Assembly (NCBI GenBank): GCA_965116925.1
Contig: OZ220744.1
Span: 5,632,001 to 5,696,000 of the forward strand
Source: Candidatus Poribacteria bacterium
GTDB taxonomy: Bacteria; Poribacteria; WGA-4E; PCPOR2b
Length of the DNA: 64,000 nt
Reading direction: 5' to 3'
Shown: positions 2,524-26,479 of the stretch, one piece after another
Layout: every line of letters starts with the position of its first letter
Position numbering within the stretch: the first letter of the stretch is position 1
Made by a program: the position numbers and the translations under genes
Notes under the pieces: generated by a model
What the model saw: only the letters and a program-made list of their open reading frames with translations
Databases searched by the model: none
What the model was told of the DNA's origin: nothing

Positions 2524-2554
2524 AAAAAAGGCGAATGGATAGAACCATTCGCCT
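2524..2554 (-). terminator. Rho-independent terminator (array family copy 1)
   Basis: AGGCGAATGG-loop-CCATTCGCCT followed by a T-run on the minus strand. Confidence 0.85.
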
Positions 2555-2582
2555 AATGAATTTTTGGAGATAGATTTGCAGG

Positions 2583-4049
2583 CTAGTGGGGCCACTCTCG
2601 CACCTCCGACATCGCACTGTCATAATCGACCGCTTTGTCATAAACTCGCCAAGCACTATTCTCTTTACGCATCTTAACAAGCTGATATCCGGACGAGATA
2701 AAAATTGATGTCGAATGATCCGATGAAATATTCGGCATCTCCGGTGCCGGTGTTCTCAACCGGAAGTGAAATTCATCGCCTACATATTCGCTGCTCACAA
2801 CCTCCGCCTGACTTATCGTTTCACGGATTGACTCACCCAGCACTGGTTTAAACTGATGTATAATTTCGACGACGTCATCCGGTGCATCATCTGACACATC
2901 TACGGAAATCTCAGAGCCTACGGAAATCTCAGAGCCATCACCATAATAACCATGGTTGCTACGCATGTACTCCTCTGTCCCTAACAAGCTCATTGCCCCA
3001 AAATCAGAATCCCTAAACGCCTCCACGTAAGCATACATCACGTCTTCAGCAGACTGATTTGTGCTTTCTGATGAAACAGATGTGTCAGTAGTGAAATCCC
3101 ACTCTGTGTCTAGATCAAATTCCGTTTCTGTCGCGAATTGTGCCAGATCCGTTTCGTCGAGTTCAGCGTACAAATCGTCAATCAGTTCTTTCTCTTCAGC
3201 AGATGCTGCTGAAGCAATTTGTGGCGGATTATCCCGAACTTCCATATCTTGAGTAGAATCAGCAGTTTGGGCAGCCAAGCCTTCCGGGCTACTTTGTGGG
3301 CGCGCCGTGCCATCTTCCCATGGCGACAGATACACGCGTTCCGCAACTGTGGGTGCATTCAACTGACGTATCCCAATGTAACCGATAAAAATAAGCACAA
3401 TCAGTGCTGCCGCACCAACCGTTATTTTAGATGCCGTTCCAACTTTCATGACAGTTAGACCTCCCGTATAAAGTTTTTTTAGTGTCATTGTGGGAGAAAC
3501 GAAGATGCCTGTCAGAAGGTATTGCAACCGTTTGGAGAGTTGTCGCTTCGCACGCGACAGCCGAAACGCAATTGCGTTGTATGACAGTCCATGCGTACTC
3601 GTCAGTTCATCGTAACTCGCACCCTCCAGATAGAAAGCACGCGCAATGTCCCTGTCTTTCTGCGGAAGCGTCTCCATGGTCCGGCGAATCAATTCCCTCT
3701 GCTCTAACCGTGCCAATCGCTCATCAGGTGAATCCTCCGTTTGCAACAGATGTTCACTCACGTCATCAAGGGATACGGTCTCACCCTGTTGTTTACGGAG
3801 CCAGTTTCGGGCGCGATTTCGCGTAATCTCTGCCAACCAACTTTTGAATTTGGTCGCATCCTCAAGCTGGCTTAACCCTTGATACGCGTTGAGAAAGGCA
3901 TCCTGCACGACCTCTTCAGCATCATGGGAATTGTCCACAACCCCGACAACAATTGCATAAACGAAGGCGTGGTACGACCGCATCAGGTCAGCAAATGCTC
4001 CTTCATCCCCACTTTGGGCACGATAGATAAGCGTATTCTCTTTAGTCAT
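2583..4049 (-). CDS. ECF sigma factor fused to TM helix and extracytoplasmic (NTF2-like?) domain, copy 1
   Basis: sigma2 (DAEEVVQDAF...FKSWL..I.RN), sigma4 (LPQKDR...LEGASYDEL...RLSRAKRQL), TM ITVGAAALIVLIFIGYIGI, acidic linker, C-terminal EDVMYAY...EFHFRL...KMRKENSAWRVYD. Confidence 0.88.
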   Translation of the reverse strand: MTKENTLIYRAQSGDEGAFADLMRSYHAFVYAIVVGVVDNSHDAEEVVQDAFLNAYQGLSQLEDATKFKSWLAEITRNRARNWLRKQQGETVSLDDVSEHLLQTEDSPDERLARLEQRELIRRTMETLPQKDRDIARAFYLEGASYDELTSTHGLSYNAIAFRLSRAKRQLSKRLQYLLTGIFVSPTMTLKKLYTGGLTVMKVGTASKITVGAAALIVLIFIGYIGIRQLNAPTVAERVYLSPWEDGTARPQSSPEGLAAQTADSTQDMEVRDNPPQIASAASAEEKELIDDLYAELDETDLAQFATETEFDLDTEWDFTTDTSVSSESTNQSAEDVMYAYVEAFRDSDFGAMSLLGTEEYMRSNHGYYGDGSEISVGSEISVDVSDDAPDDVVEIIHQFKPVLGESIRETISQAEVVSSEYVGDEFHFRLRTPAPEMPNISSDHSTSIFISSGYQLVKMRKENSAWRVYDKAVDYDSAMSEVREWPH

Positions 4050-4078
4050 AGCACTTCATTCCTCCCTTACACCCTACC

Positions 4079-4108
4079 AAGACACAGTTCCGAGATTTTT
4101 TTTAGCAC
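4079..4108 (-). promoter_or_regulatory. Putative ECF promoter GTGCTA-N17-GTGTCTT
   Basis: Conserved bipartite motif ~30 bp upstream of the sigma start; one of 11 copies. Confidence 0.7.
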
Positions 4109-4167
4109 TTTTTTGTGCTGAGAGATATTTTATCCATTTTTTCGAGAGCAAGCAATAAAAAAGGCGA

Positions 4168-4299
4168 GGTTCATGTAAAAAGAAAGTGCAAAACACGAAG
4201 CGAAATCGTAGGGGCAGGGTCTCCCCGCCCGCCGTAAGGGTTGGGGGACCCAACCCCTACGAATATTCGGTTTCTTTGCACTAAATCTTAACATGAGCG
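4168..4299. mobile_element. MITE-like element (GGCTCATG TIR family, 132 bp) carrying a GTAG REP doublet
   Basis: Imperfect TIRs; 8-bp TSD AAAGGCGA at 4160-4167 and 4300-4307; inserted into the array terminator. Confidence 0.8.
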
Positions 4300-4327
4300 A
4301 AAGGCGAATGGACAAAACCATTCGCCT
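4300..4327 (-). terminator. Array terminator copy 2 (T-tail displaced by the MITE)
   Basis: AGGCGAATGG...CCATTCGCCT stem. Confidence 0.7.
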
Positions 4328-4355
4328 CGTGAAGTCTTGGGGATAGGTTTGCGAT

Positions 4356-5747
4356 CTAGTGAGAGTGGGGCATCTCCGGCAGCTCTGACTGCATCCTGTC
4401 CAAATCGAACACAGTGTCATAAATTAGCCACACCCCATTCTCCTCTCGCATCTTAATAAGCTCGTATGAGGCACCGATAAAAACCGTTATGCCCCGATCC
4501 GAGACAATCGGCGGCCTATCTAATGCCGGTGCTGCTAATTGGAAGTGGAATTCATCGCCGACATATTTGCTGCTCTCAATCTCTGCTTGACTGTTCCTTT
4601 CATACATCAATTCAGCTATCTTGTCGACAATTTCAAGCGGTAGTTCACCAGCATTATCACGGTAGCTATGCCTGTACTCCTCTGTCATTAACGATTCCAG
4701 CGCGTCACTGTCGAAATTTCTATACGCCTCCAAATAAGCATACATTACATCTTCAGCCGATTGACCTATGCTTTCTGATGAGGCAGATATGTCGGTAGTA
4801 AAGTCCGGCTCTGCGTCTAGATCAAAGTCCGTTTCTATTGGGAATTGTGCCATATCTGTTTCGTCGGATTGATCGGAGAAATCGTCAATTGGCTCTATTC
4901 CTGCTGCGGATTCTGCTGTGGTAATTTGTGGCTGAACGCCTCCGCTTTCCGCATCTTGAGTCGTACCAGCTGGGAGTTCTTCAGGGATGTTTCGTGGGCG
5001 TTCAGTGCCATCCTCCCACGGCGACAAATACACACGCTCCTCGACTGTAGGCGCATTCATCCGGCGAACTCCAACGAAACCGATGAAAATGACTGCAATT
5101 AACGCTGCTGCACCAATTGTGACTTTAGGCACCGTTTCAATTTTCATGACGGTTAGCCCCCCCGAATAAATTTTCTTTAGCGTCAGTCCGGGAGAAACGA
5201 AGATACCAGTCAGAAGGTATTGCAACCGTTTGGAGAGTTTCTGCTTGATGCGAAAAAGCCGCAACCCTATTGCGTTGTATGATAGCCCATGCGTGTTAGT
5301 CAGTTCGTCGTAGCTTGCACCCTCCAGATAGAAGGCACGGGCAATCTCCCTGTCCTTTTGTGGAAGCGTCTCCATGGTCCGGCGAATCAACTCTCTCTGC
5401 TCCTGTCGTGTCAGTTGCTCATCAGGAGAATCCTCCGTTTGAAGTATCCCTTCACTCACTTCATTAAGGGGTACGGTCTCGCCCCGCTGTTTTCGGAGCC
5501 ATTGCCGGGCACAGTTTCGCGCAATCTCTGCTAACCAACTCTTGAATTTGGTTGTATCCTCAAGCTGTGTCAACCCTCGATAGGCACTGAGGAAGGTATC
5601 TTGCACCACCTCTTCGGCATCATGGGGATTATTCACACCTCCGATAACAATTGTATAGACAAAGGGATAGTATTCCCGCATTAGGTCGGCAAATGCCCCT
5701 TCATCCCCAGTTTGGGCGCGATAGATGAGCTTATCCTCCTTAGCCAT
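4356..5747 (-). CDS. ECF sigma-TM-extracytoplasmic domain fusion, copy 2
   Basis: Paralog of 2583..4049; start set at MAKED by alignment with the paralogs. Confidence 0.88.
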   Translation of the reverse strand: MAKEDKLIYRAQTGDEGAFADLMREYYPFVYTIVIGGVNNPHDAEEVVQDTFLSAYRGLTQLEDTTKFKSWLAEIARNCARQWLRKQRGETVPLNEVSEGILQTEDSPDEQLTRQEQRELIRRTMETLPQKDREIARAFYLEGASYDELTNTHGLSYNAIGLRLFRIKQKLSKRLQYLLTGIFVSPGLTLKKIYSGGLTVMKIETVPKVTIGAAALIAVIFIGFVGVRRMNAPTVEERVYLSPWEDGTERPRNIPEELPAGTTQDAESGGVQPQITTAESAAGIEPIDDFSDQSDETDMAQFPIETDFDLDAEPDFTTDISASSESIGQSAEDVMYAYLEAYRNFDSDALESLMTEEYRHSYRDNAGELPLEIVDKIAELMYERNSQAEIESSKYVGDEFHFQLAAPALDRPPIVSDRGITVFIGASYELIKMREENGVWLIYDTVFDLDRMQSELPEMPHSH

Positions 5748-5775
5748 GACTCTTCGTTCCCCCCAACATCCTATC

Positions 5776-5805
5776 AAAATACAGTTCTGAATTTTTTTCT
5801 AGCAC
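5776..5805 (-). promoter_or_regulatory. Putative ECF promoter GTGCTA-N17-GTATTT
   Basis: Same motif and position as in the paralogs. Confidence 0.65.
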
Positions 5806-5876
5806 TCTTTCGCATTGAAGCGAAGGGTAGTACAACTCAAGGAAGTTTTCCGTCCCCCGATTGGTGTTTCAAACTG

Positions 5877-6951
5877 TCACTGCCTTTCCAATTTCATACG
5901 TCCCCAAAGGGTGGCCTGATTACTTGACACCTCCACCGACAGAGAAGGATCACGAATCACCCACGTCGGGTCAGTATCTGAACCCGGATCCTCAGTAAGT
6001 TGCGCCCGATTACCCCCGTTGGCATCCATCACATAAATGTCTGGCTGCTGACCAACCTGAAATGCGTGGAACGCAATCCACCTCCCACTGGGAGACCACG
6101 CAGGCGCACGGTCTTCCCATGGGTGGCGGGTCAGGTTCACGACGTCCGCTCCATCCGGGTTCATTACATAGATATCGTCCTGACCCCCGATTGGACTGAA
6201 ACGCTATCTGTGTCCCATCGGGAGACCATGTAGGCGCAGCGTCTAGGGCAGGGTGGTTGGTTAAATTGACCTGCTTTCTACCATTTGAACCCATCACATA
6301 GATCTCCCCATTCCCATCCCGATTGGAAAAGAACACAATTTTTGAACCGTCAGGAGACCAAGAACCAACCTCATCAATTCCCGGCGACCATGTTAAATTT
6401 TTCAACACGATCCCTTCGATATCGATAACACAAACGTCAGTCATACCATCTGGTGACCCATCAGTGCTGGTGAGAGCTAACCGCTTCCCATCGGGAGACC
6501 ATTTTGGCGATAGGTACGTTTGACCACCAAACTGTTTAGTCACCTCTTTGATTTGACGGATTTGATGACGAGGCCCCGAAAATTCAGGAAGAATAACAGG
6601 AGTCTCCAAATATATAAAAGTGACAAATGGGTCCTGTGGATCATGCACATGGTAAGCAATATACTTTCCATCCGGTGACCAAGCAATTGGACCGTATCTA
6701 CGATTACTAAACCGCCAAGGTATTTCAGGTATTTCAAATAGTGGTATGTCAACCGGTATTTCAAATCTGAATCCATCGGCATCAATCAAATAAACTGCCG
6801 TCTGAAAAAGGGGGTCTCGATCTCGATCGGATAAAAACGTGATGGTGCCGGTCCACTTGTCGGCGGCAGCCTGTTTAATAAACAGGCTCCATGAAAGTAG
6901 GAGTATTATGGCACCAAAAATCTTTTGATGCACTGCGAGTTGCTTCAACAT
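5877..6951 (-). pseudogene. PD40/TolB-like beta-propeller protein, frameshifted
   Basis: ORFs 6010..6984 and 5877..6164 together match paralog 25217..26296; 5 nt shorter near 6183-6188. Confidence 0.8.
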
Positions 6952-7046
6952 GTATAATCCTCCTTGAATTTGTTTGGCACCCATGCTTAACTATGGTGAA
7001 TTCCAAAAATAAATAGACACTTTCGCCCCTCGGTTTCGATCCCGAT

Positions 7047-7904
7047 TTATCGGGACCGGTAGGTGCGGTTTCCAACCGCACCGGTATGGAAGTTACCCTT
7101 TACCTCTCCCCAAGTGGTCGTGAGTTGCCTTCGGGGCTGCACTGAAAGAGCCTCGTATTGAACCTCAAAATCATCGAAGTGGACACGGTTCCCCCTTCCT
7201 GACGACAGGTAAATTCCCCCTGCCGTGTAGGTATCGTCAAGAAAATCTAGCATTTTTGTGTCATCAATAAAGCATTGAAACCGATTCCCTTTGGCAATAA
7301 CCTTCAACCGATACCACTTGTGCAGCTTGAAATCAAATTCCCGAAATGCGAGTAGGTTGTCCCCTAAAAAGATTGTCGGGAATCCGTCTTTTGTCACAGA
7401 AACCTTCATAAGTTGAATGGTCGCTGCAAGACCTCCTCTTATATCGTGATTATTATTACCTAGGACGAACCTGTAAGATCGCTTGTCCAGAAGTTGAATC
7501 GCCTTGTTCTTCTCGTCTCTCTCCATCCCCTCGGTCCTCTCAAAATATTCAGTGAGCAGCTCAACGTGGTGCGGATCCAGTGGATCCATATGAGCGCGCA
7601 GCCCAATGGCTGCACCATCGCTACTATTCCTAGCTAGCTTGCTGATTTTTAGGGACACCGACACCTCGTAGTCGCTTGCGATTATACCATCAGGCACGAT
7701 GATAACCTCCGACTCAAGCTGCACTTCATCCACCACTTTAGGAGAACCGAGAACCAATTCACCATTTTCAATACCACCATCTTCAGCACCTTGCAAAAAC
7801 GTCCATCCCTGTAAGTCCCCATCGTTAAAATTATCGCGAAATATCTCTGCCCATGCTGATGACACAAACAAAGTAAGTGTCAACATAACTATTGTATGCT
7901 TCAT
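7047..7904 (-). CDS. Secreted concanavalin/DUF1080-like lectin-fold protein with TWG-K tail
   Basis: Signal peptide MKHTIVML...SSAWA; FRDNFNDGDLQGW; KWYRLKVIAKGNRFQCFIDD; FDDFEV; LSVQPRRQLTTTWGEVK. Confidence 0.7.
   Translation of the reverse strand: MKHTIVMLTLTLFVSSAWAEIFRDNFNDGDLQGWTFLQGAEDGGIENGELVLGSPKVVDEVQLESEVIIVPDGIIASDYEVSVSLKISKLARNSSDGAAIGLRAHMDPLDPHHVELLTEYFERTEGMERDEKNKAIQLLDKRSYRFVLGNNNHDIRGGLAATIQLMKVSVTKDGFPTIFLGDNLLAFREFDFKLHKWYRLKVIAKGNRFQCFIDDTKMLDFLDDTYTAGGIYLSSGRGNRVHFDDFEVQYEALSVQPRRQLTTTWGEVKGNFHTGAVGNRTYRSR
7059..7084. repeat. GTAG-type REP palindrome (inverted copy at 40594-40619)
   Basis: GTAGGTGCGGTTTCCAACCGCACCGG. Confidence 0.75.
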
Positions 7905-8069
7905 GAGATATCTCCTTTCTTTTCTGCTATAAGTCAATTTAGAGTTTGTGTCTAAGTTCAACCCTTATGAATCTCTTACAGCGGCGCTTTTCACATGTCG
8001 CTTGAATCCATCAGGATAACCCTTATAAATTGCCCTCTCTATGTTCTCAATGAATCTCTTACAGCGTAC

Positions 8070-8304
8070 TAGGGCGTGTTCACATTTTGATCCTGCTCAT
8101 TCGACAAACGCTGTAATCATCAGGCAATCTGCCATAAGTAGCGCGAACTGTTAGTGGGATCACAATCTAACAGATCGTGGTACAAAAGTTCGAAATGGCC
8201 CCTGACGTGCGAATAAAGGGTTGGGAGCCCCAACCCCTACGAAGGATTATGCGTTTGTGCTCCCTCTTGATGGTCTGGTTGCGATGAAATGTCAACAGAA
8301 CCTA
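8070..8304. mobile_element. MITE-like element with imperfect TIRs, contains a REP
   Basis: TAGGGCGTGTTCACATTT ... AAATGTCAACAGAACCTA; internal GGGTTGGGAGCCCAACCCCTACG; internal segment shared with 21880-21952. Confidence 0.55.
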
Positions 8305-8350
8305 ATTGGTTGATACCTTAGTCCTGATTCGTTCCTCTCCAGATGTTACC

Positions 8351-8380
8351 AAGATGCAGTCCCGAGATTTTTTTTACCAC
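8351..8380 (-). promoter_or_regulatory. Putative ECF promoter variant GTGGTA-N17-GCATCTT
   Basis: Follows terminator copy 3, same context as the other copies. Confidence 0.6.
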
Positions 8381-8483
8381 TTTTTTGCTTTCAAATAAAA
8401 AAAATACGGCTATCCGCCAAGTCCTCCTCAAATTTACCTTACCCTCAGAGATATTTTACCTGTTTTTTCGCAGAGCAACCAAT

Positions 8484-8515
8484 AAAAAAAGGCGAATGGA
8501 TAAATCCATTCGCCT
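8484..8515 (-). terminator. Array terminator copy 3
   Basis: AGGCGAATGG...CCATTCGCCT + T-run. Confidence 0.85.
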
Positions 8516-8551
8516 CATGAATTCTTGGAAGTAGCTTTGTGAGCTAGGGAC

Positions 8552-9925
8552 CTACCTACTCACACGATCGAACAGAACGACATAAATTCGCCACACCCCA
8601 TTCTCTTTTCGCATTTTAGCCTGCTGATATAGGCAGGTAAACATTGGCATTCTTTGGTCTGAAATACCCGGTAGCTCTAGTGCCGGCATTCTCAATCGGA
8701 AGTGAAATTCATCGCCCACATATTCGCTGCTTACAAGCGATGACTGCCCTCGTAGTTCCCGGAATGCCTCAACTAGCATTTGATGCTTAGTTTCGACGAC
8801 TTCGTCTGACATATTTATGGAATCCCCACCAACAAGATCATCATGGACGCTACGCCTATACTGCTCTGTCATTAACGATAGCATCACCTTAGAATCAGCA
8901 TCTCGCCACGCTTCTACGAAAGCATACATCACATCTTCAGCCGACTGACCTGTGTTTTCTGATGACGCGGATATGTTGGTAGTGAATTGCTCTACCTTTA
9001 GATCAAATTCCGTTTCTGTTGCGAACTGTGTCATATCTGTTTCGTCGGATTGATCGAAGAAATCATCAATAGACTCTGTTCCTGCTGTGGACGCAGCAGC
9101 AATCTGTGGCAGGTGGTTCCGGTTTTCTGTATCTTGAGTGGTGTCAGCTAGGAATCCTTCGGGGTTATTTCGTGGGCGTGTCGTTCCATCCTCCCACGGC
9201 GACAGATACACACGCTCCTCGACTGTGGGCGCATTCATCTGGCGTAGCCCAACGAAACCGATGAAAATGACTACAATCAACGCTGCGACCCCCACCGTTA
9301 TTTTGGGGACAGTTCCAACCTTCATAACGTTTAGACCTCCCGAATAAAGCTTTTTGAACGTCAGTCCGGGAGAAACGAAGATGCCTGTCAGAAGATAGCG
9401 CAACCGTTTGGAGAGTTGCCGCTTAATGCGAAAAAGGCGAAACGCAATTGCGTTATATGACAGGCCATGCGCCCTAGTCAGTTCGTCGTAGCTGGCACCC
9501 TCTAGATAGAATGCGCGGGCAATGTCCCTATCCTTTTGTGGAAGCGTCTCCATTGTCCGGCGAATCAGTTCCGTCTGTTCCTGTTGTACCAATTGGTCAT
9601 CAGGTAAGTCCTCTGTTTGAAGTATCCCCTCACTCACTTCATCAAGGGATACGGTCTCGTCCCTCTGTTTGCGGAGCCACTGTCGCACACAGTTCCGCGT
9701 AATCTCTGCCAACCAATTTTTGAATTTGGTTACATCTTCAAGTTGTCTTAACCCTCGATAAGCACTGAGGAAGGTATCTTGTACCACCTCTTCGACATCA
9801 TGGGGATTGTCTACAATTCTTATAACAATCGTATAGACAAAGGGGTAGTATTCCCGCATCAGGTCGGTGAAAGCCCCCTCATCTCCAGCTTGGGCACGAT
9901 AAATGAGCGTATTGTCATTAGCCAC
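8552..9925 (-). CDS. ECF sigma-TM-extracytoplasmic domain fusion, copy 3
   Basis: Paralog; GTG start. Confidence 0.88.
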   Translation of the reverse strand: MANDNTLIYRAQAGDEGAFTDLMREYYPFVYTIVIRIVDNPHDVEEVVQDTFLSAYRGLRQLEDVTKFKNWLAEITRNCVRQWLRKQRDETVSLDEVSEGILQTEDLPDDQLVQQEQTELIRRTMETLPQKDRDIARAFYLEGASYDELTRAHGLSYNAIAFRLFRIKRQLSKRLRYLLTGIFVSPGLTFKKLYSGGLNVMKVGTVPKITVGVAALIVVIFIGFVGLRQMNAPTVEERVYLSPWEDGTTRPRNNPEGFLADTTQDTENRNHLPQIAAASTAGTESIDDFFDQSDETDMTQFATETEFDLKVEQFTTNISASSENTGQSAEDVMYAFVEAWRDADSKVMLSLMTEQYRRSVHDDLVGGDSINMSDEVVETKHQMLVEAFRELRGQSSLVSSEYVGDEFHFRLRMPALELPGISDQRMPMFTCLYQQAKMRKENGVWRIYVVLFDRVSR

Positions 9926-9953
9926 GGATTGTCTGCTCCCTCAGCGTTTTATC

Positions 9954-9982
9954 AAGATATAGTCCTGAGACTTTCCTAGCAC
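9954..9982 (-). promoter_or_regulatory. Putative ECF promoter GTGCTA-N16-ATATCTT
   Basis: Conserved motif upstream of sigma copy 3. Confidence 0.6.
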
Positions 9983-10022
9983 TTTACCTAAACACCTCAT
10001 CAGATTGAGAAGTTCGTCCGGC

Positions 10023-10051
10023 ATTATATCAACCCGTCCAATCCGCGTCAA
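10023..10051 (-). promoter_or_regulatory. sigma70-type promoter for sigma copy 3
   Basis: TTGACG-N17-TATAAT. Confidence 0.75.
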
Positions 10052-10089
10052 GCAGATTGCGGATTGCTATCTTTGCTGAATAAAGGCAG

Positions 10090-11013
10090 TTATTGGTTGA
10101 CCTGTTTGAGCTGTCCCCACATTGTAAACTTTTTGCCGGAGGGAGAAACCGAAAAAGGAGAGTTAAACCATGCAGGATTAGCGTCACCATGCGGATTATT
10201 GGTGAGGTTTTGAGGATTCCCGCCATCGGCATCCATCGCGTAGATTTCAGTATTTTCAATGTCCGCCTCCCTATTAGACCAGAAGACAATGCGCTTGCCG
10301 TCAGGGGACCATGAGGGGTCCTCATCAAAAACGCGATTTTCAGTGAGTCTTTGTTCATTCTGCCCATCAGCATCCATCACGTAGATTTCATAAGTGATTC
10401 CATCCTCGCCTATAAAGTGCCCAGGCCTGCGAGCCCTGAAGACAATCCGTTCACCATCGGGGGACCATGAGGGATCTTTGTCCTCAGTGAGATTTTTAGT
10501 GAGTCTTTGTTGATTCTTCCCATCGGCGTCCATCACATAGATCTCAACATTATGAGCAGCCTCACCCTTACCCATATCCCTATCAGACGAAAAGACAATG
10601 CGTTTGCCGTCGGGGGACCACGAGGGGGTTCTATCATCAGAAGGATTGTTAGTGAGGTTTTGAGGATTGCCTCCATCGTCGTCCATCACGTAGATTTCAG
10701 CAGTGAGCCAACCGTTAGCGTCAACGTGCCCATCCCTATCAGACACGAAGGCAATGCGTTTACCGTCGGGAGACCATGACGGTGAATAGTCACTACTGGG
10801 ATTATTGGTGAGTCTTTGTTGATTCTCCCCATCGTCGTCCATCACGTAGATTTCAGGAGCGGGTATCTCGGGTATATCCTTTCGAAAGTGCCCATCCCTC
10901 TGAGACGCGAAGGCAATCTGTGCCTGTACCTCAACACATACCATCAGCGATGTCAGCACCAAGACTACTACGCCAGCTAAAATCAAATGGGTGAGATTGT
11001 ATCTCCGTTGCAT
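10090..11013 (-). CDS. Secreted PD40/TolB-like beta-propeller protein
   Basis: Signal peptide; four PSWSPDG repeats; EIYVMDADG; tail FSVSPSGKKFTMWGQLK. Confidence 0.88.
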   Translation of the reverse strand: MQRRYNLTHLILAGVVVLVLTSLMVCVEVQAQIAFASQRDGHFRKDIPEIPAPEIYVMDDDGENQQRLTNNPSSDYSPSWSPDGKRIAFVSDRDGHVDANGWLTAEIYVMDDDGGNPQNLTNNPSDDRTPSWSPDGKRIVFSSDRDMGKGEAAHNVEIYVMDADGKNQQRLTKNLTEDKDPSWSPDGERIVFRARRPGHFIGEDGITYEIYVMDADGQNEQRLTENRVFDEDPSWSPDGKRIVFWSNREADIENTEIYAMDADGGNPQNLTNNPHGDANPAWFNSPFSVSPSGKKFTMWGQLKQVNQ

Positions 11014-11080
11014 CTGTTATTCCTCCTCTGTTTCCAAATCAGTTTCTTATCCTTGAACACCGTTCTCTCAATAATTGTAG

Positions 11081-12046: not shown

Positions 12047-12071
12047 CTGCCTTTCCTCCTCTGACTTTATT

Positions 12072-13961: not shown

Positions 13962-13968
13962 AAGGCAG

Positions 13969-17323: not shown

Positions 17324-17427
17324 TTTTTTTGTTTTTAAGGGAAAAAATATGGCTTCCTGTCGAAACACTCTCTAAATCCACGCTATCCTTAGCGGTATTT
17401 TGCTTTTTCCTTCGTGGAGCAAGCAAT

Positions 17428-17458
17428 AAAAAAGGCGAATGGTATGAACCATTCGCCT
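17428..17458 (-). terminator. Array terminator copy 5
   Basis: AGGCGAATGG...CCATTCGCCT + T-run. Confidence 0.85.
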
Positions 17459-17513
17459 AATGAATTCTTGAAAGTAGGATTGCAAGCTAGTCTAACATCT
17501 CACCCTCATACAT

Positions 17514-19256
17514 TCACCGCGCCTTCTCCTCTTTTCGCATCTTGGTAACAGTATCTGGTGAAGGTGTGGCAGACATTTCTATTCCATGCTCTCCACCATC
17601 CGGCATCTTTGGGGCAGGCATTCTCAATCGGGAGTGAAATTCATCGCCCACATATTCGCCGTTTATAGCCGATGCCTGACGCTGCATCTCACGAAACGAC
17701 TCATTCAGCATTGGTTCAAACTGATGGCTAGTGTTGACGATCTCATCCGGTATGCGATCTGATGACTCATGTTGTACTTCCCTTATCTCTATCGGAATCC
17801 CAGAATCATCATGGCTACTACGTCCCATATCGCTTCTTATATTTGCCGCCGGCACCTCCGCCATCGTATTTTCGATTGAGGTCATAGCGTCATAAACTCG
17901 CCACATCCCATTCTCTTGTCGCATCTTAATAAGGCTATATACGGTGTAGGTACACTTTGGCATTCCCTGATCTGTAATACTTGGTGGCTGTTTCAATCGG
18001 AAGTGAAATTCATCACCAACATATTCGCTGCTCACAAGCAATGCCTGCTTTCGTCCTTCACGGACTCTTTCCTCAATCGCCATTCGTTCAAACTGAGACA
18101 TAGTTTCGACAACCTCAGCCGGTGATTCATCTGACGTATCTATGGAATCCTCATCGTCAGGATCTTCATGGCCCTCGCGCCGATACTGCTCTGTCATTAA
18201 TGAGCCCATTGCCTTAAAATCAAGGTTCCGCCACGCCTCGAAGTAAGCGTACATCACATCTTCAGCGGACTGCCCTGTGCTTTCTGATGACGCAGATGTG
18301 CCGGTTGTGAACCCCCGCACTATGTCTAGATTAAATTCCCCGTCTGTTGTGAATTGTGACAGATCCGTTTCCTCAGGTTCACCGACGAAATCGTCAACTG
18401 GCTCTGTGCTTGCTGTGGACGCCATCGCAGCAATTTGCGGCAGATTGTTCCAGCTTGCTGTATCTTGAGCGGTATCAGTTGGGAATCTTTCGGGATTGTT
18501 TCGCAGGCGTGCCGTTCCATCCTCCCACGGCGACAAATACACACGCTCCTCGACTATAGGCGCGTTCATCTGGCGTAGCCCAATGAAACCGATCAAAACC
18601 AGCGCAATCAACCCTATCCCTCCAACCACCATTTTGGGGGTAGTTCCAACTTTTATGGCGGTTAGACCTCTCGTATAAAGTTTCTTCAGCGTCAGCCCGG
18701 GAGTGACGAACACACCGGTCAGAAGGTATCGCAATCGTTTGGAGAGTTGTTGCTTCGCACGTGACAGCCGAAACGAAATCGCCTTGTCTGACAACCCGTG
18801 TGTGCTCGTCAGTTCATTGTAGCTTGCACCCTCAAAGTAGAAAGCACGGGCGATGTCCCTATCCTTTTGCGGAAGTGCCTCCATTGCCCGGCGGATTAGT
18901 TCTCTCTGTTCCTGTCGGGTCAATTGTTCATCAGGCGGGTCTTGTGTCTGTAGTACCCCTTCATCCACGTCATCAAGGGGTACAGTGTTGATCCTTCGTT
19001 TTCGGACCCATTGTCGTGCACAATTTCGCGCAATCTCCGCCAGCCAGCTTTTGAACTTTACCGCATCCTCAAGCTGCCTCAGTCCTCGATAGGCGTTGAG
19101 GAAGGTGTCTTGTATCACCTCTTCGACATCATGGGAATTGTCCACGATTCTTATAACAATCGTATAGACAAAGGGGTAATATTCCCGCATCAGGTCGGTG
19201 AAAGCCCCCTCATCTCCAGCTTGAACGCGATAAATGAGCGTATTGTCATTAGCCAT
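17514..19256 (-). CDS. ECF sigma-TM-extracytoplasmic domain fusion, copy 5 (partially duplicated C-terminal domain)
   Basis: Start MANDNTL by alignment; EYVGDEFH motif occurs twice. Confidence 0.85.
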   Translation of the reverse strand: MANDNTLIYRVQAGDEGAFTDLMREYYPFVYTIVIRIVDNSHDVEEVIQDTFLNAYRGLRQLEDAVKFKSWLAEIARNCARQWVRKRRINTVPLDDVDEGVLQTQDPPDEQLTRQEQRELIRRAMEALPQKDRDIARAFYFEGASYNELTSTHGLSDKAISFRLSRAKQQLSKRLRYLLTGVFVTPGLTLKKLYTRGLTAIKVGTTPKMVVGGIGLIALVLIGFIGLRQMNAPIVEERVYLSPWEDGTARLRNNPERFPTDTAQDTASWNNLPQIAAMASTASTEPVDDFVGEPEETDLSQFTTDGEFNLDIVRGFTTGTSASSESTGQSAEDVMYAYFEAWRNLDFKAMGSLMTEQYRREGHEDPDDEDSIDTSDESPAEVVETMSQFERMAIEERVREGRKQALLVSSEYVGDEFHFRLKQPPSITDQGMPKCTYTVYSLIKMRQENGMWRVYDAMTSIENTMAEVPAANIRSDMGRSSHDDSGIPIEIREVQHESSDRIPDEIVNTSHQFEPMLNESFREMQRQASAINGEYVGDEFHSRLRMPAPKMPDGGEHGIEMSATPSPDTVTKMRKEEKAR

Positions 19257-19284
19257 GGACTCTCGTTCCTCCCAACATTTTATC

Positions 19285-19313
19285 AAGATACAGTCCCGAG
19301 ATCTGTCTGGCAC
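19285..19313 (-). promoter_or_regulatory. Putative ECF promoter variant GTGCCA-N16-GTATCTT
   Basis: Conserved position upstream of sigma copy 5. Confidence 0.55.
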
Positions 19314-19353
19314 TTTATGTGAACATCTCATCAGATTGAAAGGTTCGTCCGGC

Positions 19354-19382
19354 ATTATATCCACTTGTCAAATCCGCGTCAA
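19354..19382 (-). promoter_or_regulatory. sigma70-type promoter for sigma copy 5
   Basis: TTGACG-N17-TATAAT. Confidence 0.75.
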
Positions 19383-19457
19383 GCAAATTATAGTGAAACT
19401 GGAAGCGGAAAAGCGTGGATCCGGACCTCGGCAACGCCGTTCTTTCAATAGTGGAGG

Positions 19458-20492
19458 CTATCGGTCAATCTGTTTGAGCCAACCCCACATTGTGAATTGT
19501 TTGCCGGTGGGAGAAACCGAAAAAGGAGAGTTCAACCAGACAGGATCGCCGTCACGATGCAGATTATTGGTGAGTTTTTGAGGATTAGCCCCATTATTGT
19601 CCATCACGTAGATTTCACTGTTTCCATTCCCATCCCTCTCCGACATGAAGGCAATGCGTTCACCGTCCGGAGACCATGAGGGCGAACTGTCATCACCGCG
19701 ATTATTGGTCAGTTTTTGTTGATTCCCACCATCGACGTCCATCACGTAGATTTCAAAGTTTTCAAAGTCACCCTTCCTATCAGATGCGTAGACAATCCGT
19801 TCACCGTCAGGAGACCAGGAGGGAAACCAGTCAGTTTGACGATTTTCAGTAAGTCTCTGTTGATTACCTCCATCGACATCCATTACATAGATTTCAGTAG
19901 TGATTCCAGCTTTGCCTCTAAAGTGCCCAGGCCTCTCAGATACAAAGACGATCCGTTTGCCATCGGGGGACCAAGAGGGATACCTGTCGTCACTGGGATT
20001 GTTAGTCAGGTTTTGAAGATTCCCACCATCGGCGTCCATCACGTAGATTTCATAAGTAGGAGCAAAATCTATAATGTGCCCATCCCTCATAGACATGAAG
20101 ACGATCTGTGTGCCGTCAGGAGACCAGGAGGGGCCCCTGTCATCAGCGGGATTTTCAGTGAGTCTTTGCGGATTCTTCCCATCGGCGTCCATCACGTAGA
20201 TTTCATAAGTAAACCAACCGGGTACAAAGTGAGGGTGGCCATCTCTATCCGACACGAAGACAATCCGTTTACCGTCCGGAGACCAGGAGGGATCCCAGTC
20301 CTTAGCGGGATTATTGGTGAGTCTTCGCTGATTCTTCCCATCAACATCCATCACATAAATTTCAGGGTTGCCATCCCTCTGAGACACGAAGGCAATCTGC
20401 GCTTGTGAATTGACGACTACCATCAGCAGCGTTAGAACCATGATTACAACACCAGTTAAAATCAAATGGGCGAGATTATATCTTCGGTGCAT
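19458..20492 (-). CDS. Secreted PD40/TolB-like beta-propeller protein
   Basis: Start MHRRYNL after GAGGA RBS; WSPDG repeats; tail FSVSPTGKQFTMWGWLK. Confidence 0.88.
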   Translation of the reverse strand: MHRRYNLAHLILTGVVIMVLTLLMVVVNSQAQIAFVSQRDGNPEIYVMDVDGKNQRRLTNNPAKDWDPSWSPDGKRIVFVSDRDGHPHFVPGWFTYEIYVMDADGKNPQRLTENPADDRGPSWSPDGTQIVFMSMRDGHIIDFAPTYEIYVMDADGGNLQNLTNNPSDDRYPSWSPDGKRIVFVSERPGHFRGKAGITTEIYVMDVDGGNQQRLTENRQTDWFPSWSPDGERIVYASDRKGDFENFEIYVMDVDGGNQQKLTNNRGDDSSPSWSPDGERIAFMSERDGNGNSEIYVMDNNGANPQKLTNNLHRDGDPVWLNSPFSVSPTGKQFTMWGWLKQIDR

Positions 20493-20525
20493 CTGTCTTT
20501 CCTCCTCTGTTCTCAAATCATTTTT

Positions 20526-20657
20526 GGCTCATGTAAAAAGAAAGTGCAAAATATGAACGAAATCGTAGGGGCGGGGTTGCCCCGCCCGCAATAAGGGTTG
20601 GGTGACCCAACCCCTACGAAAACTCGGTCGCTGTTGCCCGCTTTCTTAACGGGACCC
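20526..20657. mobile_element. MITE-like element (GGCTCATG TIR family, 132 bp) with REP doublet
   Basis: TSD TCATTTTT / TCGTTTTT; near-inverted copy of 22128-22259. Confidence 0.75.
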
Positions 20658-20700
20658 TCGTTTTTTTTATCCTTAAACACTGTTCTCTCAATAATGACAG

Positions 20701-21699
20701 TTATCGGTCAACCCGCTTGAGCCAGCCCCACCTCGTGAGTATCTTACCTGTCGGAGCAACTGAAAGAACGGGGTTAGACCATGCAGGAACAGTGTCATCA
20801 TCGGGATGATTGGTCAGGTTTCGAGGATTATTCCCATCGGTGTTTATCACGAAGATTTCATGGTTCCCATCATTCTCCCTATCAGACACGAAGACAATCT
20901 GTTTACCGTCCGGAGACCAGGAGGGGTTCCAATCCCTAAAGGGATTTTGAGTCACTCTTTGCTGATTGCCTCCATCGGCGTCCATCACATAGATATCCCG
21001 GTTTCCCCCTGGCCCATTCCTAAAGGAATCAAAGGCAATGCGCTTACCGTCTGGAGACCATGACGGATTTTGATCATGCTTGGCATTATTGGTGAGGTTC
21101 TGCTTATTACCCCCATCGGCATCCATCACGAAGATCTCAAAGTTCCCACCCTCAACGGAATTAAAGGCAATCCGTTGACCGTCGGGAGACCATGACGGAT
21201 CGCTCTCATCAGAAAAAGGATCGTTGGAGAGGTTTTGCACATTACCCCCATCGGCATCCATCACATAGATTTGCCAAACTCCACCCGCAACGTTCCAGTG
21301 CTCACTAGAAGTAAAGACAATCCGTTGACCGTCGGGAGACCATGACGGTTCCCATTCAGAAAAGTCACTGTTAGTGAGTTTTTGCTTATTCCCCCCATCG
21401 GCGTCCATCACGAAGATTTGCCGGTTCTCATCCCTAGCTCCTTCTCCAGCCCTACTGGTAACAAAGGCAATCCGTTGACCGTCCGGTGACCATGTGGGTT
21501 CCGATTCATCCAAGGGATTGTTAGTGAGTCTTCGCAGATTCCCCCCATCGGTGTCTATCACATAGATTTCCAAGTTCCAATCCCTATCAGACACGAAGGC
21601 AATCTGTGCCTGTGCGTCAACGCATACCATCAGCAGCGTTAGACCCAAGACTACCATGCTAGTTAAAATCAAATATCCGGGATTATATCTCCGTCGCAT
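20701..21699 (-). CDS. Secreted PD40/TolB-like beta-propeller protein
   Basis: Start MRRRYNP after GAGGA RBS; tail LSVAPTGKILTRWGWLK. Confidence 0.88.
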   Translation of the reverse strand: MRRRYNPGYLILTSMVVLGLTLLMVCVDAQAQIAFVSDRDWNLEIYVIDTDGGNLRRLTNNPLDESEPTWSPDGQRIAFVTSRAGEGARDENRQIFVMDADGGNKQKLTNSDFSEWEPSWSPDGQRIVFTSSEHWNVAGGVWQIYVMDADGGNVQNLSNDPFSDESDPSWSPDGQRIAFNSVEGGNFEIFVMDADGGNKQNLTNNAKHDQNPSWSPDGKRIAFDSFRNGPGGNRDIYVMDADGGNQQRVTQNPFRDWNPSWSPDGKQIVFVSDRENDGNHEIFVINTDGNNPRNLTNHPDDDTVPAWSNPVLSVAPTGKILTRWGWLKRVDR

Positions 21700-21974
21700 C
21701 TGTCTTTCCTCCTCTGTTTTCAAATCAGTTTTTGATCCTTTGAGTTGATAGTGGTCAACTGGTGTTGGCAATCTCCTTCAAATTATAGTAGATTTTAGAA
21801 TTAATTGGACGCTATGAACGAGCACGGCAGAAACCTGTTGGCACGGTTACGGCACACGGTATACGCTTCCGATGTAAAGGGCAATCTGCCATAAGTAGCG
21901 CAAACTGTTAGTTTGCGGCTTGGGATCACAATCTAACAGATTGTGGTACAAAAAACTATCTACTTTTAATGTCT

Positions 21975-22113
21975 TAGGACTTACGCAGTTGAATGGTCAA
22001 ACCCTTGTAGTTCGGTGATTCATCGCCCGTCCCCCCCTCTATCCCCCGCAAGCAGGGGGAGGGAAGAACGCGCAATGAATTGCGCTACTACAAACTGAAG
22101 TGCGTAACTCCTA
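21975..22113. mobile_element. MITE-like element, TAGGACTTACGCA TIR, with REP cargo
   Basis: TAGGACTTACGCA ... TGCGTAACTCCTA; 5-bp TSD TGTCT at 21970-21974 and 22114-22118. Confidence 0.75.
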
Positions 22114-22127
22114 TGTCTATTTATTTT

Positions 22128-22259
22128 GGCTCATGTTAAGAAAGCGTGCAACAGCAACCGAGTTTTCGTAGGGGTTGGGTCACCCAACCCTTACTGCGGG
22201 CGGGGAAACCCCGCCCCTACGATTTCGTTCATATTTTGCACTTTCTTTTTACATGAGCC
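22128..22259. mobile_element. MITE-like element (GGCTCATG TIR family, 132 bp) with REP doublet
   Basis: GGCTCATGT...ACATGAGCC; 8-bp TSD TTTATTTT. Confidence 0.85.
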
Positions 22260-22377
22260 TTTATTTTTAGAATTCACTATAAACGGACAATTCGGTTTAT
22301 TATCGCATGAAGTCTTCAGCCCTTCCTTGGCGTTTATGACCCAACCTCAACGAACACTGTTTTCTCAATAATCCCAC

Positions 22378-23537: not shown

Positions 23538-23568
23538 AAAAAAGGCGAATGGAATGAACCATTCGCCT
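23538..23568 (-). terminator. Array terminator copy 6
   Basis: AGGCGAATGG...CCATTCGCCT + T-run. Confidence 0.85.
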
Positions 23569-23596: not shown

Positions 23597-25033
23597 CTAG
23601 CGGTGAAACATCTCTGACAACTCTGCCTGCGCCCTGTCTGAATCGAACACACTGTCATAAATTCGCCACGCGCCCTCCTCTTTTCGCATCTTAATAAGCC
23701 TCTCTTCGGACGGAAAAACCACTGTTTCCCCCTGATCTGAAATATCCGGTATCTCCGATGCCGGCGTTCTGAATCGGAAGTGAAATTCATCGCCGACATA
23801 CTTGTTACTCACAACCTCAGCTTGACTTCGCCTTTTTTGGCTTAACTGCTCTAACAACGGTTCAAGCTGCCTACTCTTTTCTTCTACATCTTCCACATCT
23901 GGCTGTCCGCCTACTGTCGCCACACCGATTACTGTTGTCTCATCAAGACCACTATGTCCGATATCCTCTGCGAATAATGGGCGCATTGCCTTATAGTCAA
24001 AGTTTCGCCATGCTTCTACATAAGCGTCCATCACATCTTCAGCAGACTGATTTGTGCTTTCTGATGACACAGATGTGTCAGCAGTGAAATCTTGCTCTGT
24101 ATCTAGCTCAAATTCCGCTTCCGTTGCGAATTGCGCCATATCCGTTTCGTCGAGTTCAGCGAAGAAATCGTCAATTGGCTCCATTCCTGCTGCAGATTCT
24201 GCCGGAGCAGTTTGTGGCTGAGTGTCTCCGCTTTCCGCATCTTGAGTGGTGTCAGCTAGGAGTTCTTCAGTGCTGTTTCGTGGACGTGCAGTGCCATCCT
24301 CCCACGGCGACAAATACACCCGCTCCTCAACTGTGGGCGCATTCATCTGACGGACTCCGATATAACCGATGAAAATCAGTCCAATCAGTGCTATCGCGCT
24401 TACTGTTATTTTAGGTGCCATTCCAACCTTCATGGCAGCTAGACCTCCCGAATAGATTTTTTTGAGTGTTAATCCGGGAGGAACAAAGATGCCAGTCAGC
24501 AGATATTGCAACCGTTTGGAGAGTTGTCGCCTCGCACGCGATAGCCGGAACGAAATCGCCTTATCTGACAGTCCGTGCGTGCTAGTCAACTCGTTGTAAC
24601 TTGCACCTTCCAGATAGAATGCGCGGACAATATCCCTGTCTTTCTGCGGAAGTGTCTCCATTATACGGCGAATCAGCTCGCTCTGTTCCTGTCGCGTCAA
24701 TCGCTCATCAGGTGAATCTTCCATTTGAAGCAGGTGTTCACTCACTTCGTCGATAGACACGGTATCGCCTCTCTGTTTACGGAGCCAGTTTCGCGCCCGA
24801 TTTCGCGCTATCTCTGCCAACCAGCTTTTGAATTTCGCGTTATCCTCAAGCTGTTTCAAACCTCGATAGGCACTGAGAAAGGTATCTTGCACAACCTCTT
24901 CGGCGTCATGGGAATTTTTCACGATTCCGATTACGATTGCATAAACATAGGCGTGGTATGACCGCATCAGGGCAGCAAACGCTTGTTCATCGCCAGCTTG
25001 GGCGTGATGGATGAGTGTATTCTCCTTAGCCAT
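23597..25033 (-). CDS. ECF sigma-TM-extracytoplasmic domain fusion, copy 6
   Basis: Paralog. Confidence 0.88.
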   Translation of the reverse strand: MAKENTLIHHAQAGDEQAFAALMRSYHAYVYAIVIGIVKNSHDAEEVVQDTFLSAYRGLKQLEDNAKFKSWLAEIARNRARNWLRKQRGDTVSIDEVSEHLLQMEDSPDERLTRQEQSELIRRIMETLPQKDRDIVRAFYLEGASYNELTSTHGLSDKAISFRLSRARRQLSKRLQYLLTGIFVPPGLTLKKIYSGGLAAMKVGMAPKITVSAIALIGLIFIGYIGVRQMNAPTVEERVYLSPWEDGTARPRNSTEELLADTTQDAESGDTQPQTAPAESAAGMEPIDDFFAELDETDMAQFATEAEFELDTEQDFTADTSVSSESTNQSAEDVMDAYVEAWRNFDYKAMRPLFAEDIGHSGLDETTVIGVATVGGQPDVEDVEEKSRQLEPLLEQLSQKRRSQAEVVSNKYVGDEFHFRFRTPASEIPDISDQGETVVFPSEERLIKMRKEEGAWRIYDSVFDSDRAQAELSEMFHR

Positions 25034-25062
25034 GGCTCTTCGTTCCTCCCTTACACCCTACC

Positions 25063-25092
25063 AAGACACAGTTTCGAGATTTTTTCTAGCAC
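25063..25092 (-). promoter_or_regulatory. Putative ECF promoter GTGCTA-N17-GTGTCTT
   Basis: Upstream of sigma copy 6; nearly identical to 4079-4108. Confidence 0.7.
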
Positions 25093-25141
25093 TTTTTTAT
25101 TTTAAGAAACATTTTACCCGTTTCTTCACAAAGCAAGCAAT

Positions 25142-25172
25142 AAAAAAGGCGAATGGAGGGGACCATTCGCCT
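25142..25172 (-). terminator. Array terminator copy 7
   Basis: AGGCGAATGG...CCATTCGCCT + T-run. Confidence 0.85.
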
Positions 25173-25216
25173 AATTCTAAAGAGGTCTTCTATTCCATAA
25201 TTGGTGTTTCAAATTG

Positions 25217-26296
25217 TCACTGCCTCCCCAATTTTATGCGTCCCCAAAGGGTAGTTTGATTATCTGATACCTCCACCGATAAAGAGCGGTCAGGAATGAC
25301 CCACGTCGGGTTAGTGTCCGCCCGCGGATCCCCAGTGAGCTGTTTCTGATTATCCCCGTTGGCATCCATGACATAAATATCTGAACGCTTCCCGACCCGA
25401 AATGCGTGGTAAGCTATCCACCTACCATCGGGAGACCATGCAGGCGCCTGGTCTTCCCATGGGTGGCGGGTTAGGTTGACGACATTCGCTCCATCAGGGT
25501 TCATCGCATAGATATCGTCCTGCTCCCCTTCCCGATTGGAATGAAACGCTATCTTTGTCCCATCGGGAGACCATGTGGGTGCAGCGTCGCGGGCGGGGTG
25601 GTTGGTCAAATTGATTTGGTTGTTCCCATTTGCGTCCATCACATAGATTTCCCCGTTTCCATCCCGATTGGAAAAGAATACGATTTTTGAGCCATCAGGA
25701 GACCAAGAACCGACCTCATCTACTCCTGGCGACTGTGTTAAGTTCTTCAACTGATTGCCCTCAATATCCATGACACAAACATCCGTCATACCATCTGGTG
25801 ACCCGTCAGTGCTGGTGAGAGCTAACCACTTCCCATCCGGGGACCATTTTGGCGATAGGTACGTTTGACCGCCAAACTGTTCGGTTATGCTTTTGTGCTG
25901 TTTCGGAGGATCAATAATTGCTACTTGGACTGCCCGATTTTCAAATTTCGGACCTAAATGATTCTTCAGCACTTCAGGAAGAAGAACAGGAGTCTCCAAA
26001 TATATATGAGCACGATGTTGGTCCTGCAGGTGGAAGGCAATATATTTGCCATCAAGGGACCAGGCGATTGGACCATATTTGAAGGTACTAGCCCTCCAAC
26101 TTTCTTCATTTAATCCATCCGCATCAATCACATAAACTACTATCTCATCCTCAAAAGGGTGGCGCTTCCGATCGGATACAAACACAATGGTGCCGGTCCG
26201 CTCGTCGGCAAAAGCCTGTTCGGTAAACAGAATCCATGTAAATAAAGGTATCATGACACCAAGAATCCTCCGGGACACTGAGAGTTGCTTCAACAT
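25217..26296 (-). CDS. Secreted PD40/TolB-like beta-propeller protein (subtype of 5877..6951)
   Basis: Start MLKQLS after GGAGG; WSPDG repeats; tail LSVEVSDNQTTLWGRIK. Confidence 0.85.
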   Translation of the reverse strand: MLKQLSVSRRILGVMIPLFTWILFTEQAFADERTGTIVFVSDRKRHPFEDEIVVYVIDADGLNEESWRASTFKYGPIAWSLDGKYIAFHLQDQHRAHIYLETPVLLPEVLKNHLGPKFENRAVQVAIIDPPKQHKSITEQFGGQTYLSPKWSPDGKWLALTSTDGSPDGMTDVCVMDIEGNQLKNLTQSPGVDEVGSWSPDGSKIVFFSNRDGNGEIYVMDANGNNQINLTNHPARDAAPTWSPDGTKIAFHSNREGEQDDIYAMNPDGANVVNLTRHPWEDQAPAWSPDGRWIAYHAFRVGKRSDIYVMDANGDNQKQLTGDPRADTNPTWVIPDRSLSVEVSDNQTTLWGRIKLGRQ

Positions 26297-26449
26297 GTGT
26301 AATCCTCCTTGCATTCGTTTGGTAATCATGTGTGACCGAATTCCGTCGGGACAGTAACGAACGGCGTCCCCCATATCCTCAATAAGCCCCTCGCTGCACA
26401 TGAGCTCATCGACACCTTAGCCCAGATTTGTTCTTCACCAATATCTACC

Positions 26450-26479
26450 AAGACACACCTTTGAGATTTTTTCTAGCAC
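26450..26479 (-). promoter_or_regulatory. Putative ECF promoter GTGCTA-N17-GTGTCTT
   Basis: Heads the array. Confidence 0.7.

Follow-up and report, generated by a model that had tools for sequence, protein, structure and literature searches.

Why should genes for membrane-tethered sigma factors alternate, all on one strand, with genes for predicted secreted propellers? The question is raised by an array at positions 2524–26479 of a 64,000-nt stretch of a Candidatus Poribacteria genome (hereafter the window), in which the original prediction saw a sensor-effector system where each extracytoplasmic function (ECF) sigma factor switches on its own propeller genes. Our analysis favours another answer. 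The array appears to have arisen by tandem expansion within a Poribacteria family of one-piece ECF proteins, in each of which a sigma factor is joined to one membrane helix, an acidic linker and a predicted NTF2-like outer domain, and genes for PD40 propellers and a PF06439 protein have likely come to lie behind copies of the family's promoter-like motif in this genus.

Six one-piece sigma factors in tandem

Domain searches of the array identified six minus-strand open reading frames (ORFs) with Sigma70_r2 and Sigma70_r4_2 domains: S1 (2583–4049, 488 aa), S2 (4356–5747, 463 aa), S3 (8552–9925, 457 aa), S4 (12270–13664, 464 aa), S5 (17514–19256, 580 aa, with an extra partial C-domain) and S6 (23597–25033, 478 aa). 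PF04542 and PF08281 were present in 6/6 (the r4_2 score of S2, 25.4, was marginally below the cut-off of 25.7), TIGR02937 was above its cut-off in all six and, having sigma2 and sigma4 without sigma3, these proteins are ECF sigma factors. The remaining content of the array comprised ten ORFs with PD40 repeats, eight of type PA and two of type PB, and one gene, X, for a predicted secreted PF06439 protein. The earlier count of ten propellers was right, but it had passed over the two types, a frameshift in P1 and the eleventh cargo gene, X. As predicted, no anti-sigma, tol-pal or TonB ORF was found within 2524–26479, either in the ORF list or by domain searches.

The one-polypeptide architecture proposed for the sigma proteins was found in every copy. 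Sigma2 and sigma4 occupy residues 1–176 and are followed by a single hydrophobic, putatively transmembrane (TM), segment at residues 209–227 (mean Kyte-Doolittle value over 19 residues 2.39–2.84; next best ≤ 1.38), an acidic linker of 92–97 residues with 18–26 D/E and 3–5 K/R, and a C-domain of ~150 residues. Between the 15 pairs of paralogues, identity fell from 79% in the sigma part through 73% in the linker plus TM segment and 65% in the acidic linker to 51% in the C-domain, in agreement with the prediction of a conserved sigma factor and a diverging outer domain. Pooled dN/dS over the same pairs was 0.15, 0.24, 0.40 and 0.51, respectively, and 11 orthologue pairs gave 0.13, 0.28, 0.44 and 0.51. 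Every part of the protein is thus under purifying selection (dN/dS 0.13–0.51), and positive, diversifying selection on the C-domain was rejected, its value of 0.51 being relaxed yet purifying.

The C-domain had no match in Pfam or NCBIfam. A model of the S6 C-domain built from 39 sequences (pLDDT 84) matched NTF2/SnoaL-like folds in both fold searches (Foldseek E 1e-4 to 1e-3), with Z 8.0–9.3 and rmsd 2.4–4.0 over 92–114 residues in the top seven rows, the best match being at Z 9.3 and rmsd 2.4 over 93 residues. The NTF2 ectodomain of the anti-sigma factor RsgI9 was also among the matches (Z 7.2). The outer domain is therefore predicted to be NTF2-like and pocket-shaped, the fold of the other copies being taken from the S6 model. 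A fold of the full-length sigma fusion had low confidence (pLDDT 54) and matched sigma factors only, and a co-fold of the S6 C-domain with the neighbouring propeller P9 (score 0.00, mark 0.32) carries no weight for or against binding.

The array is not an artefact of assembly, a condition that had been raised with the prediction, because the sigma copies share only 70–84% DNA identity and 13 other genomes have the array next to the same flank. Both public runs covered 30/30 bins of 2000–21900, although no single contig reaches across all of it and the runs may themselves derive from the source sample; the joints listed for them, which involve repeats and paralogues, were left out of account.

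A motif shared by sigma genes and cargo

Family sigma genes in four genera are preceded by a bipartite motif whose shape is kept while the flanks diverge: an A-tract, GTGCTAGAAAAAA, a spacer at a fixed distance to GTCTT and then a short gap to the ribosome-binding site (RBS). A weight matrix was trained exclusively on 39 sigma upstream regions from three other genera and applied with a cut-off of 20 bits. The 6.47-Mb genome gave 14 matches above 20 bits, compared with none in one shuffled genome; eight preceded family sigmas, one a sigma remnant and five the array cargo genes P10, P9, P6, P3 and X. No strong match in the genome scan preceded any of the 12 other PA clusters, which hold 45 propellers. 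Within the array, all on the minus strand, the motif lies before S1 (4079–4114, 45.7 bits), S2 (5776–5811, 32.9 bits), S6 (25063–25098, 51.2 bits), X and P1 (8351–8386, 39.1 bits), P3 and P2 (12072–12107, 36.3 bits), P6, P5 and P4 (17294–17329, 38.8 bits), P9 (23405–23440, 45.6 bits) and P10 (26450–26485, 45.6 bits; it starts at 26485, just past the array end at 26479). To judge from its sequence and placement, it is likely the autoregulated ECF promoter of the tethered-sigma family. Autoregulation with nearby targets, as originally suggested, fits a motif shared by sigmas and adjacent cargo. The further suggestion of sigma-specific target sets fared less well: since a single motif is common to all strong copies, cross-talk is the likelier outcome. 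An alternative parse of the motif, GGAAC...GTAA, was rejected by eye, as other genera do not conserve GTAA and this parse would place the start inside the RBS.

The genes S3, S4 and S5 are preceded by sigma70-type sites, also on the minus strand: TTGACG-17-TATAAT at 10023–10051 (S3) and 19354–19382 (S5), where the family motif has decayed, and TTGACG-18-TATAAT at 13763–13792 (S4), where it scores 18.2 bits. The same terminator-like hairpin follows 6/6 array sigmas, lying at 2530–2553 after S1 (minus strand) and again at 4303–4326, 8491–8514, 12211–12233, 17434–17457, 23544–23567 and 25148–25171; the genome has 13 copies, seven of them in the array and always beside family genes. The repeating module of promoter, propellers, promoter, sigma and terminator that had been proposed was thus borne out in its shared motif and terminator (6/6 sigmas), but with two promoter types rather than one. 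The predicted units, read 5′ to 3′, are P10; S6; P9-P8-P7 then S5; P6-P5-P4 then S4; P3-P2 then S3; X-P1 then S2; and S1.

Linkage was compared in 25 regions fetched from related genomes plus the source genome. In the 15 same-genus regions, 49 of 101 motif matches preceded cargo, with class medians mostly of 39–50 bits against 44 for sigma copies that follow a terminator. Twelve same-genus cases were found of a leading cargo gene with a strong motif and no preceding sigma (median 46–50 bits). Sigmas located after PA blocks had a decayed motif (median 17 bits), and a TTGACG...TATAAT-type site was found before 22 of the 66 same-genus sigmas. In the 11 regions from other genera, 43/45 matches lay before sigma or ECF genes, a figure that is partly circular because those regions trained the matrix, and no match lay before a PD40 or PF06439 gene.

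Propellers and their linkage in relatives

All 41 loci returned by the sigma alignment were from Ca. Poribacteria; S6 was matched in 34/61 genomes and in 17/19 within its own genus; and a C-domain profile matched 59/151 genomes and 5/22 genera of the phylum, and 102 representatives among 1.84 billion. The source genome holds ten full-length members, one sigma-PurC fusion, one stand-alone C-domain and one remnant, and the four full-length sigmas outside the array have no directly adjoining propeller. The truncated remnant (G000:C1:2619700–2620039, minus strand) has an intact motif and lies upstream of a gene that looks TolC-like by eye; the stand-alone C-domain (359592–360065, minus strand) adjoins an ORF resembling an insertion sequence.

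At 14/14 loci with the same downstream flank, including that of the source genome, we found 2–6 sigmas and 1–12 PD40 genes, in keeping with the prediction of an expanding array, in which gain and loss are ongoing. A further same-genus region, at a different locus, had no PD40 gene. The sigma arrays of 11/11 regions from three other genera also had none, other genes lying between the sigmas there. Synteny in relatives therefore supports the linkage within the genus and not beyond it. In a quick tree built from 101 sigma-TM regions, clades followed genera, and copies of this genus grouped largely by array position; the array thus predates speciation, and copy gain and loss continue. The cargo of orthologous sigmas varies from genome to genome, and some sigma copies in relatives are broken.

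The propellers were not tied to the array. The genome encodes 53 PA propellers in 13 clusters, eight in the array and 45 in the 12 others; the array's eight are scattered over the PA tree rather than forming one clade, and for five of them the best match is a propeller from outside the array. Among paralogues, two loop classes had dN/dS of 0.95 and 1.10 and a third 0.58, compared with 0.22 for the scaffold, which agrees with the predicted divergence of the loops; 15 orthologue-like pairs gave 0.44–0.66 for loops and 0.18 for the scaffold. The array locus has therefore sampled a propeller family that is spread over the genome and diversified in its loops. A C-terminal tag (V.P..K..T.WG..K; WGxxK) ends 120 proteins of the genome, of several domain types and including 71 PD40 proteins, with no occurrence in mid-protein controls. 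Most tagged proteins in the sample inspected had signal-peptide-like starts, and the tag is likely a sorting signal. The propellers resemble TolB in their PD40 repeats, but the five of ten array propellers scanned with TIGR02800 scored 139–279 bits against a TolB cut-off of 343, and they lack the TolB N-terminal domain, have no tol-pal genes nearby and bear the WGxxK tag. No match above that cut-off was found among the 120 of 246 genome candidates scored. An abundance of WD40-type repeat proteins in Poribacteria is reported in PMC3909097, a text in which the word 'sigma' does not occur.

The PA genes of the array, all on the minus strand as is every gene described here for it, are P2 (10090–11013, one repeat shorter, with a signal-peptide-like N-terminus and the C-terminal tag), P3 (11081–12046), P4 (13969–14988), P5 (15018–15983), P6 (16040–17029), P7 (19458–20492), P8 (20701–21699) and P9 (22378–23379), in which the distance from motif to start equals that of sigma start codons. 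Of the two PB genes, P10 (25217–26296) is intact and P1 (5877–6951) has a frameshift near 6185, a 5-nt deletion relative to intact PB copies, with the tag carried in its second frame (5877–6164). The site was bridged by one zero-difference contig from run X2, which may be the source sample, and the in-frame form was present on a low-depth X2 contig. Gene X (7047–7904) encodes a member of the 3-keto-disaccharide hydrolase family with a signal-peptide-like N-terminus and a C-terminal WGxxK tag, and its counterparts recur within relatives' arrays.

Regulation, rival readings and known systems

How might such an array be regulated? Our preferred reading, to which we give slightly better than even confidence, is that the motif is the family's autoregulated promoter, that S3–S5 are constitutive sensors, and that the NTF2-like domain receives a signal upon which sigma is freed by proteolysis and transcribes S1, S2, S6 and the captured secreted genes. 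We infer that the array sigmas read the motif as a promoter. Behind their sigma70-type sites, S3, S4 and S5 would then be standing sensors, and S1, S2 and S6 with the cargo would form an inducible, self-amplifying tier. If all paralogues read one promoter, several outer domains would feed one output, as in an OR gate. The NTF2-like domain may bind a small ligand or report the state of the envelope. From the precedent of IutY (below) we infer that regulated proteolysis, probably Prc/RseP-type cleavage, connects sensing to release; one M50 and three S41 proteases are encoded in the genome. The duplicating unit appears to be terminator-promoter-sigma, with cargo slotting in between a promoter and the next sigma.

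Several observations weigh against this reading. The charges next to the TM segment leave its orientation unset (4–5 K/R before, 3–5 after), Z scores of 8–9 for the C-domain indicate a fold and not a function or ligand, and M50 proteases are near-universal (14/14 controls). Cargo copies of the motif had −35/−10 conservation of 0.90–0.96 against 0.57–0.67 in the flanks, but this is partly circular because the copies were picked by pattern, the spacer (0.88) being the only unconstrained part. P8 retains the native PA-family leader and sigma70-like sites were found at 4/12 first genes inspected in other PA arrays, so not all cargo needs the motif. A sigma-PurC fusion without a TM segment could drive the motif without a membrane signal. 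Finally, genomes of one genus are not independent.

A strong version of the original prediction, a dedicated and co-evolving sensor-effector system with a separate propeller set for each sigma and with propellers that act as ligands or co-receptors of the outer domain, would account for the interleaving at 14/14 same-genus loci, for loop dN/dS near 1 among paralogues and for the predicted extracytoplasmic location of both partners. We consider it improbable, as the link is found in one genus only and is missing from 11/11 sigma-array regions of three others, four further full-length sigmas stand without an adjoining propeller, orthologous sigmas have different cargo across genomes, one motif serves all, and the array's PA genes are not one clade. 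Given this confinement, and with 45/53 PA propellers located in other clusters and lacking a strong motif match, the propellers have the look of targets that this genus captured, not of partners dedicated to the sigmas. The same 45 propellers would also suit the opposite idea, that the locus is a hotspot of duplication and recombination in which the terminator-promoter spacer is copied along with sigma and propellers land with no regulatory value. So would the best matches of five of eight array PAs outside the array, the REP-like hairpins filling several spacers, the frameshift in P1 and broken sigma copies in relatives, and the wholly different cargo of other genera. Mere passage of this kind nevertheless seems unlikely to us: cargo copies of the motif score like sigma copies while those that gained a sigma70-type site have decayed, leading cargo genes have a strong motif with no sigma before them (the 12 cases above), and the motif is common to three unrelated cargo types.

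A different challenge concerns proteolysis. A soluble family member (sigma-PurC or a truncated copy), or a tethered sigma in place, might transcribe the array, with a sigma-less TM-NTF2 product titrating or pairing with the full-length protein. In an alignment of 101 family genes, GGAGG occurred ≤ 20 nt before codon 201 in 69 (compared with 29/1268 other internal Met codons), codon 201 was ATG or GTG in 99 and codon 196 was GGA, GAA or AGA in 95, and sigma-less genes beginning at the codon-201 Met exist in relatives. In S6 the GGAGG and in-frame ATG lie before the TM segment at 24431–24448 (minus strand, codons 196–201), and both are intact in S1 (3447–3464) and S3 (9323–9340). The sigma-PurC fusion (G000:C1:6346760–6348286, plus strand), in which a second copy of PurC (97% protein and 93% DNA identity to the native one) continues the reading frame of the sigma module directly behind the internal Met, has a 48.9-bit family motif upstream, the family terminator flanking it and no TM segment. 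On the other side, the signal is weakened in S2 and S4 and the start codon is lost in S5, so that 3/6 array copies keep both elements; four other four-fold sites are equally biased (0.90–0.95); and the PurC fusion is patchy, with differing junctions (among 11 genomes inspected, eight of the family-sigma type and two of another ECF type). The internal-start signal may be in use or may have been left behind by gene capture, as was proposed for duplicated planctomycetal ECFs (scenario d in section 12 of PMC7671368). Taken together, we regard activation without proteolysis as quite doubtful. The internal start also enters a broader conjecture, which we think unlikely, that terminator-promoter-sigma is a self-amplifying cassette rewiring genes by capture at two joints. 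The promoter joint would take in PD40 propellers and PF06439 genes as targets, and the Shine-Dalgarno-ATG joint behind sigma4 would swap the C-terminal partner (TM-NTF2, PurC or WD40). A single gene would then give a receptor that carries sigma as well as a decoy or co-receptor that lacks it, and constitutive and inducible paralogues with differing NTF2 pockets would form a multi-input switch for a variable repertoire of surface proteins.

Programmed slippage at an A-run near codons 191–192 was rejected, since the run length varied from 2 to 8 across the 101 genes. Among the 25 of 120 listed matches that were inspected, sigma forms of 195–211 aa mostly ran into another frame at their end, as errors or pseudogenes would. 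In another genus (g11), three 543-aa family sigmas (L092, L093 and L095) carry WD40-like repeats from the same position of the linker onward and lack an obvious TM segment.

Tethered ECF architecture is already a known kind. IutY of Pseudomonas putida, an ECF243 sigma/anti-sigma hybrid, likewise combines a cytosolic ECF, one TM segment and a periplasmic domain in one polypeptide and is activated through cleavage by Prc and RseP, as described in PMC5411451 and PMC8999054; by analogy it would be the best model for proteolytic activation of the array sigmas. Unlike IutY, these have an NTF2-like outer domain without a FecR Pfam match, no TonB-dependent receptor ORF in the array, and a multi-copy tandem arrangement with its own motif. 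ECF57 of Planctomycetes and the duplicated planctomycetal ECFs share duplication, conserved sigma2/sigma4 and variable, membrane-containing C-terminal extensions (PMC7826278, PMC7671368), but ECF57 is described as having a conserved Cys pair (one each in sigma2 and sigma4), about two TM segments, a WD40 or homeodomain-like extension and promoters that are not conserved (PMC7826278). Two Cys in the sigma part were found in 0/6 array copies and in 3/101 family members; the array sigmas, from Ca. Poribacteria, have one TM segment and an NTF2-like domain, their propellers are separate genes, and the family motif is conserved. In ECF48/52/53 of Actinobacteria (SCO4117), also sigma-TM-extracellular domain fusions with predicted proteolytic activation (PMC8999054), phylum and outer domain differ and there is a zinc-finger (ZAS) domain that the array sigmas lack; no Cys or His lies between sigma4 and the TM segment in the six array copies. 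Absence of the Cys pair, FecR and ZAS would thus set the array sigmas apart from IutY and ECF48/52/53/57, by the features given in these papers.

ECF41/56/205/294/295 are also fused to a SnoaL/NTF2-like domain, a short extension (120–150 aa in ECF56/205/294/295) that contacts the sigma core in ECF41, according to PMC7826278 and PMC8999054. In the array proteins the NTF2-like domain is predicted to lie across the membrane, beyond the TM segment (209–227) and the 92–97-aa acidic linker, so that direct inhibition would be impossible. The membrane protein RsgI9 of Clostridium thermocellum (PDB 7SJY) also bears an NTF2-like domain outside the cell (Z 7.2, rmsd 3.7 over 100 residues), and its processing through RseP-type signalling is described in PMC12203970. 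RsgI9, however, is a separate SigI-class anti-sigma factor, and a Z within the range of a common fold does not imply homology. None of the ECF groups described in the cited papers combines a one-piece ECF with an NTF2-like domain across the membrane, the main text and examined supplement of PMC7826278 do not mention 'Poribacteria', and literature searches, which covered few subscription journals, found no published description of the tethered-sigma family. What appears new is a candidate family promoter, genus-limited capture of secreted cargo and a two-tier promoter layout. This would provide a candidate promoter, regulator and small regulon for an uncultured phylum, described as sponge-associated in PMC3909097, and the 25 related-genome regions show how, in one genus, promoter capture has likely brought new targets under a sigma. 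Should the internal start be in use, a receptor and the sigma-less counterpart to it would come from a single gene.

Several features surround these genes. Hairpins with GTAG, presumably REP elements, occupy the spacers 4050–4355, 7905–8551, 20493–20700 and 21700–22377, each pattern having ~120 copies in the genome. The upstream flank of the array (26891–33077), with a metallo-beta-lactamase-fold gene, an S15 peptidase gene and others, is unlike the same-genus loci where these were fetched, which suggests rearrangement at that end. Farther along on the plus strand, 33252–36020 and 36026–38530 encode two more ECF fusions, distinct from those of the array, whose ectodomains are BNR/Sortilin-type propellers, and the genome motif scan found no copy of the array's motif ahead of them. 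At the other flank, a plus-strand ORF at 1820–2488 begins like a signal peptide and contains two TGA codons in frame, spaced three codons apart in a UxxU-like arrangement and both kept in 12/12 genomes inspected, and is followed by a conserved hairpin-like stretch; we regard it as a candidate selenoprotein gene.

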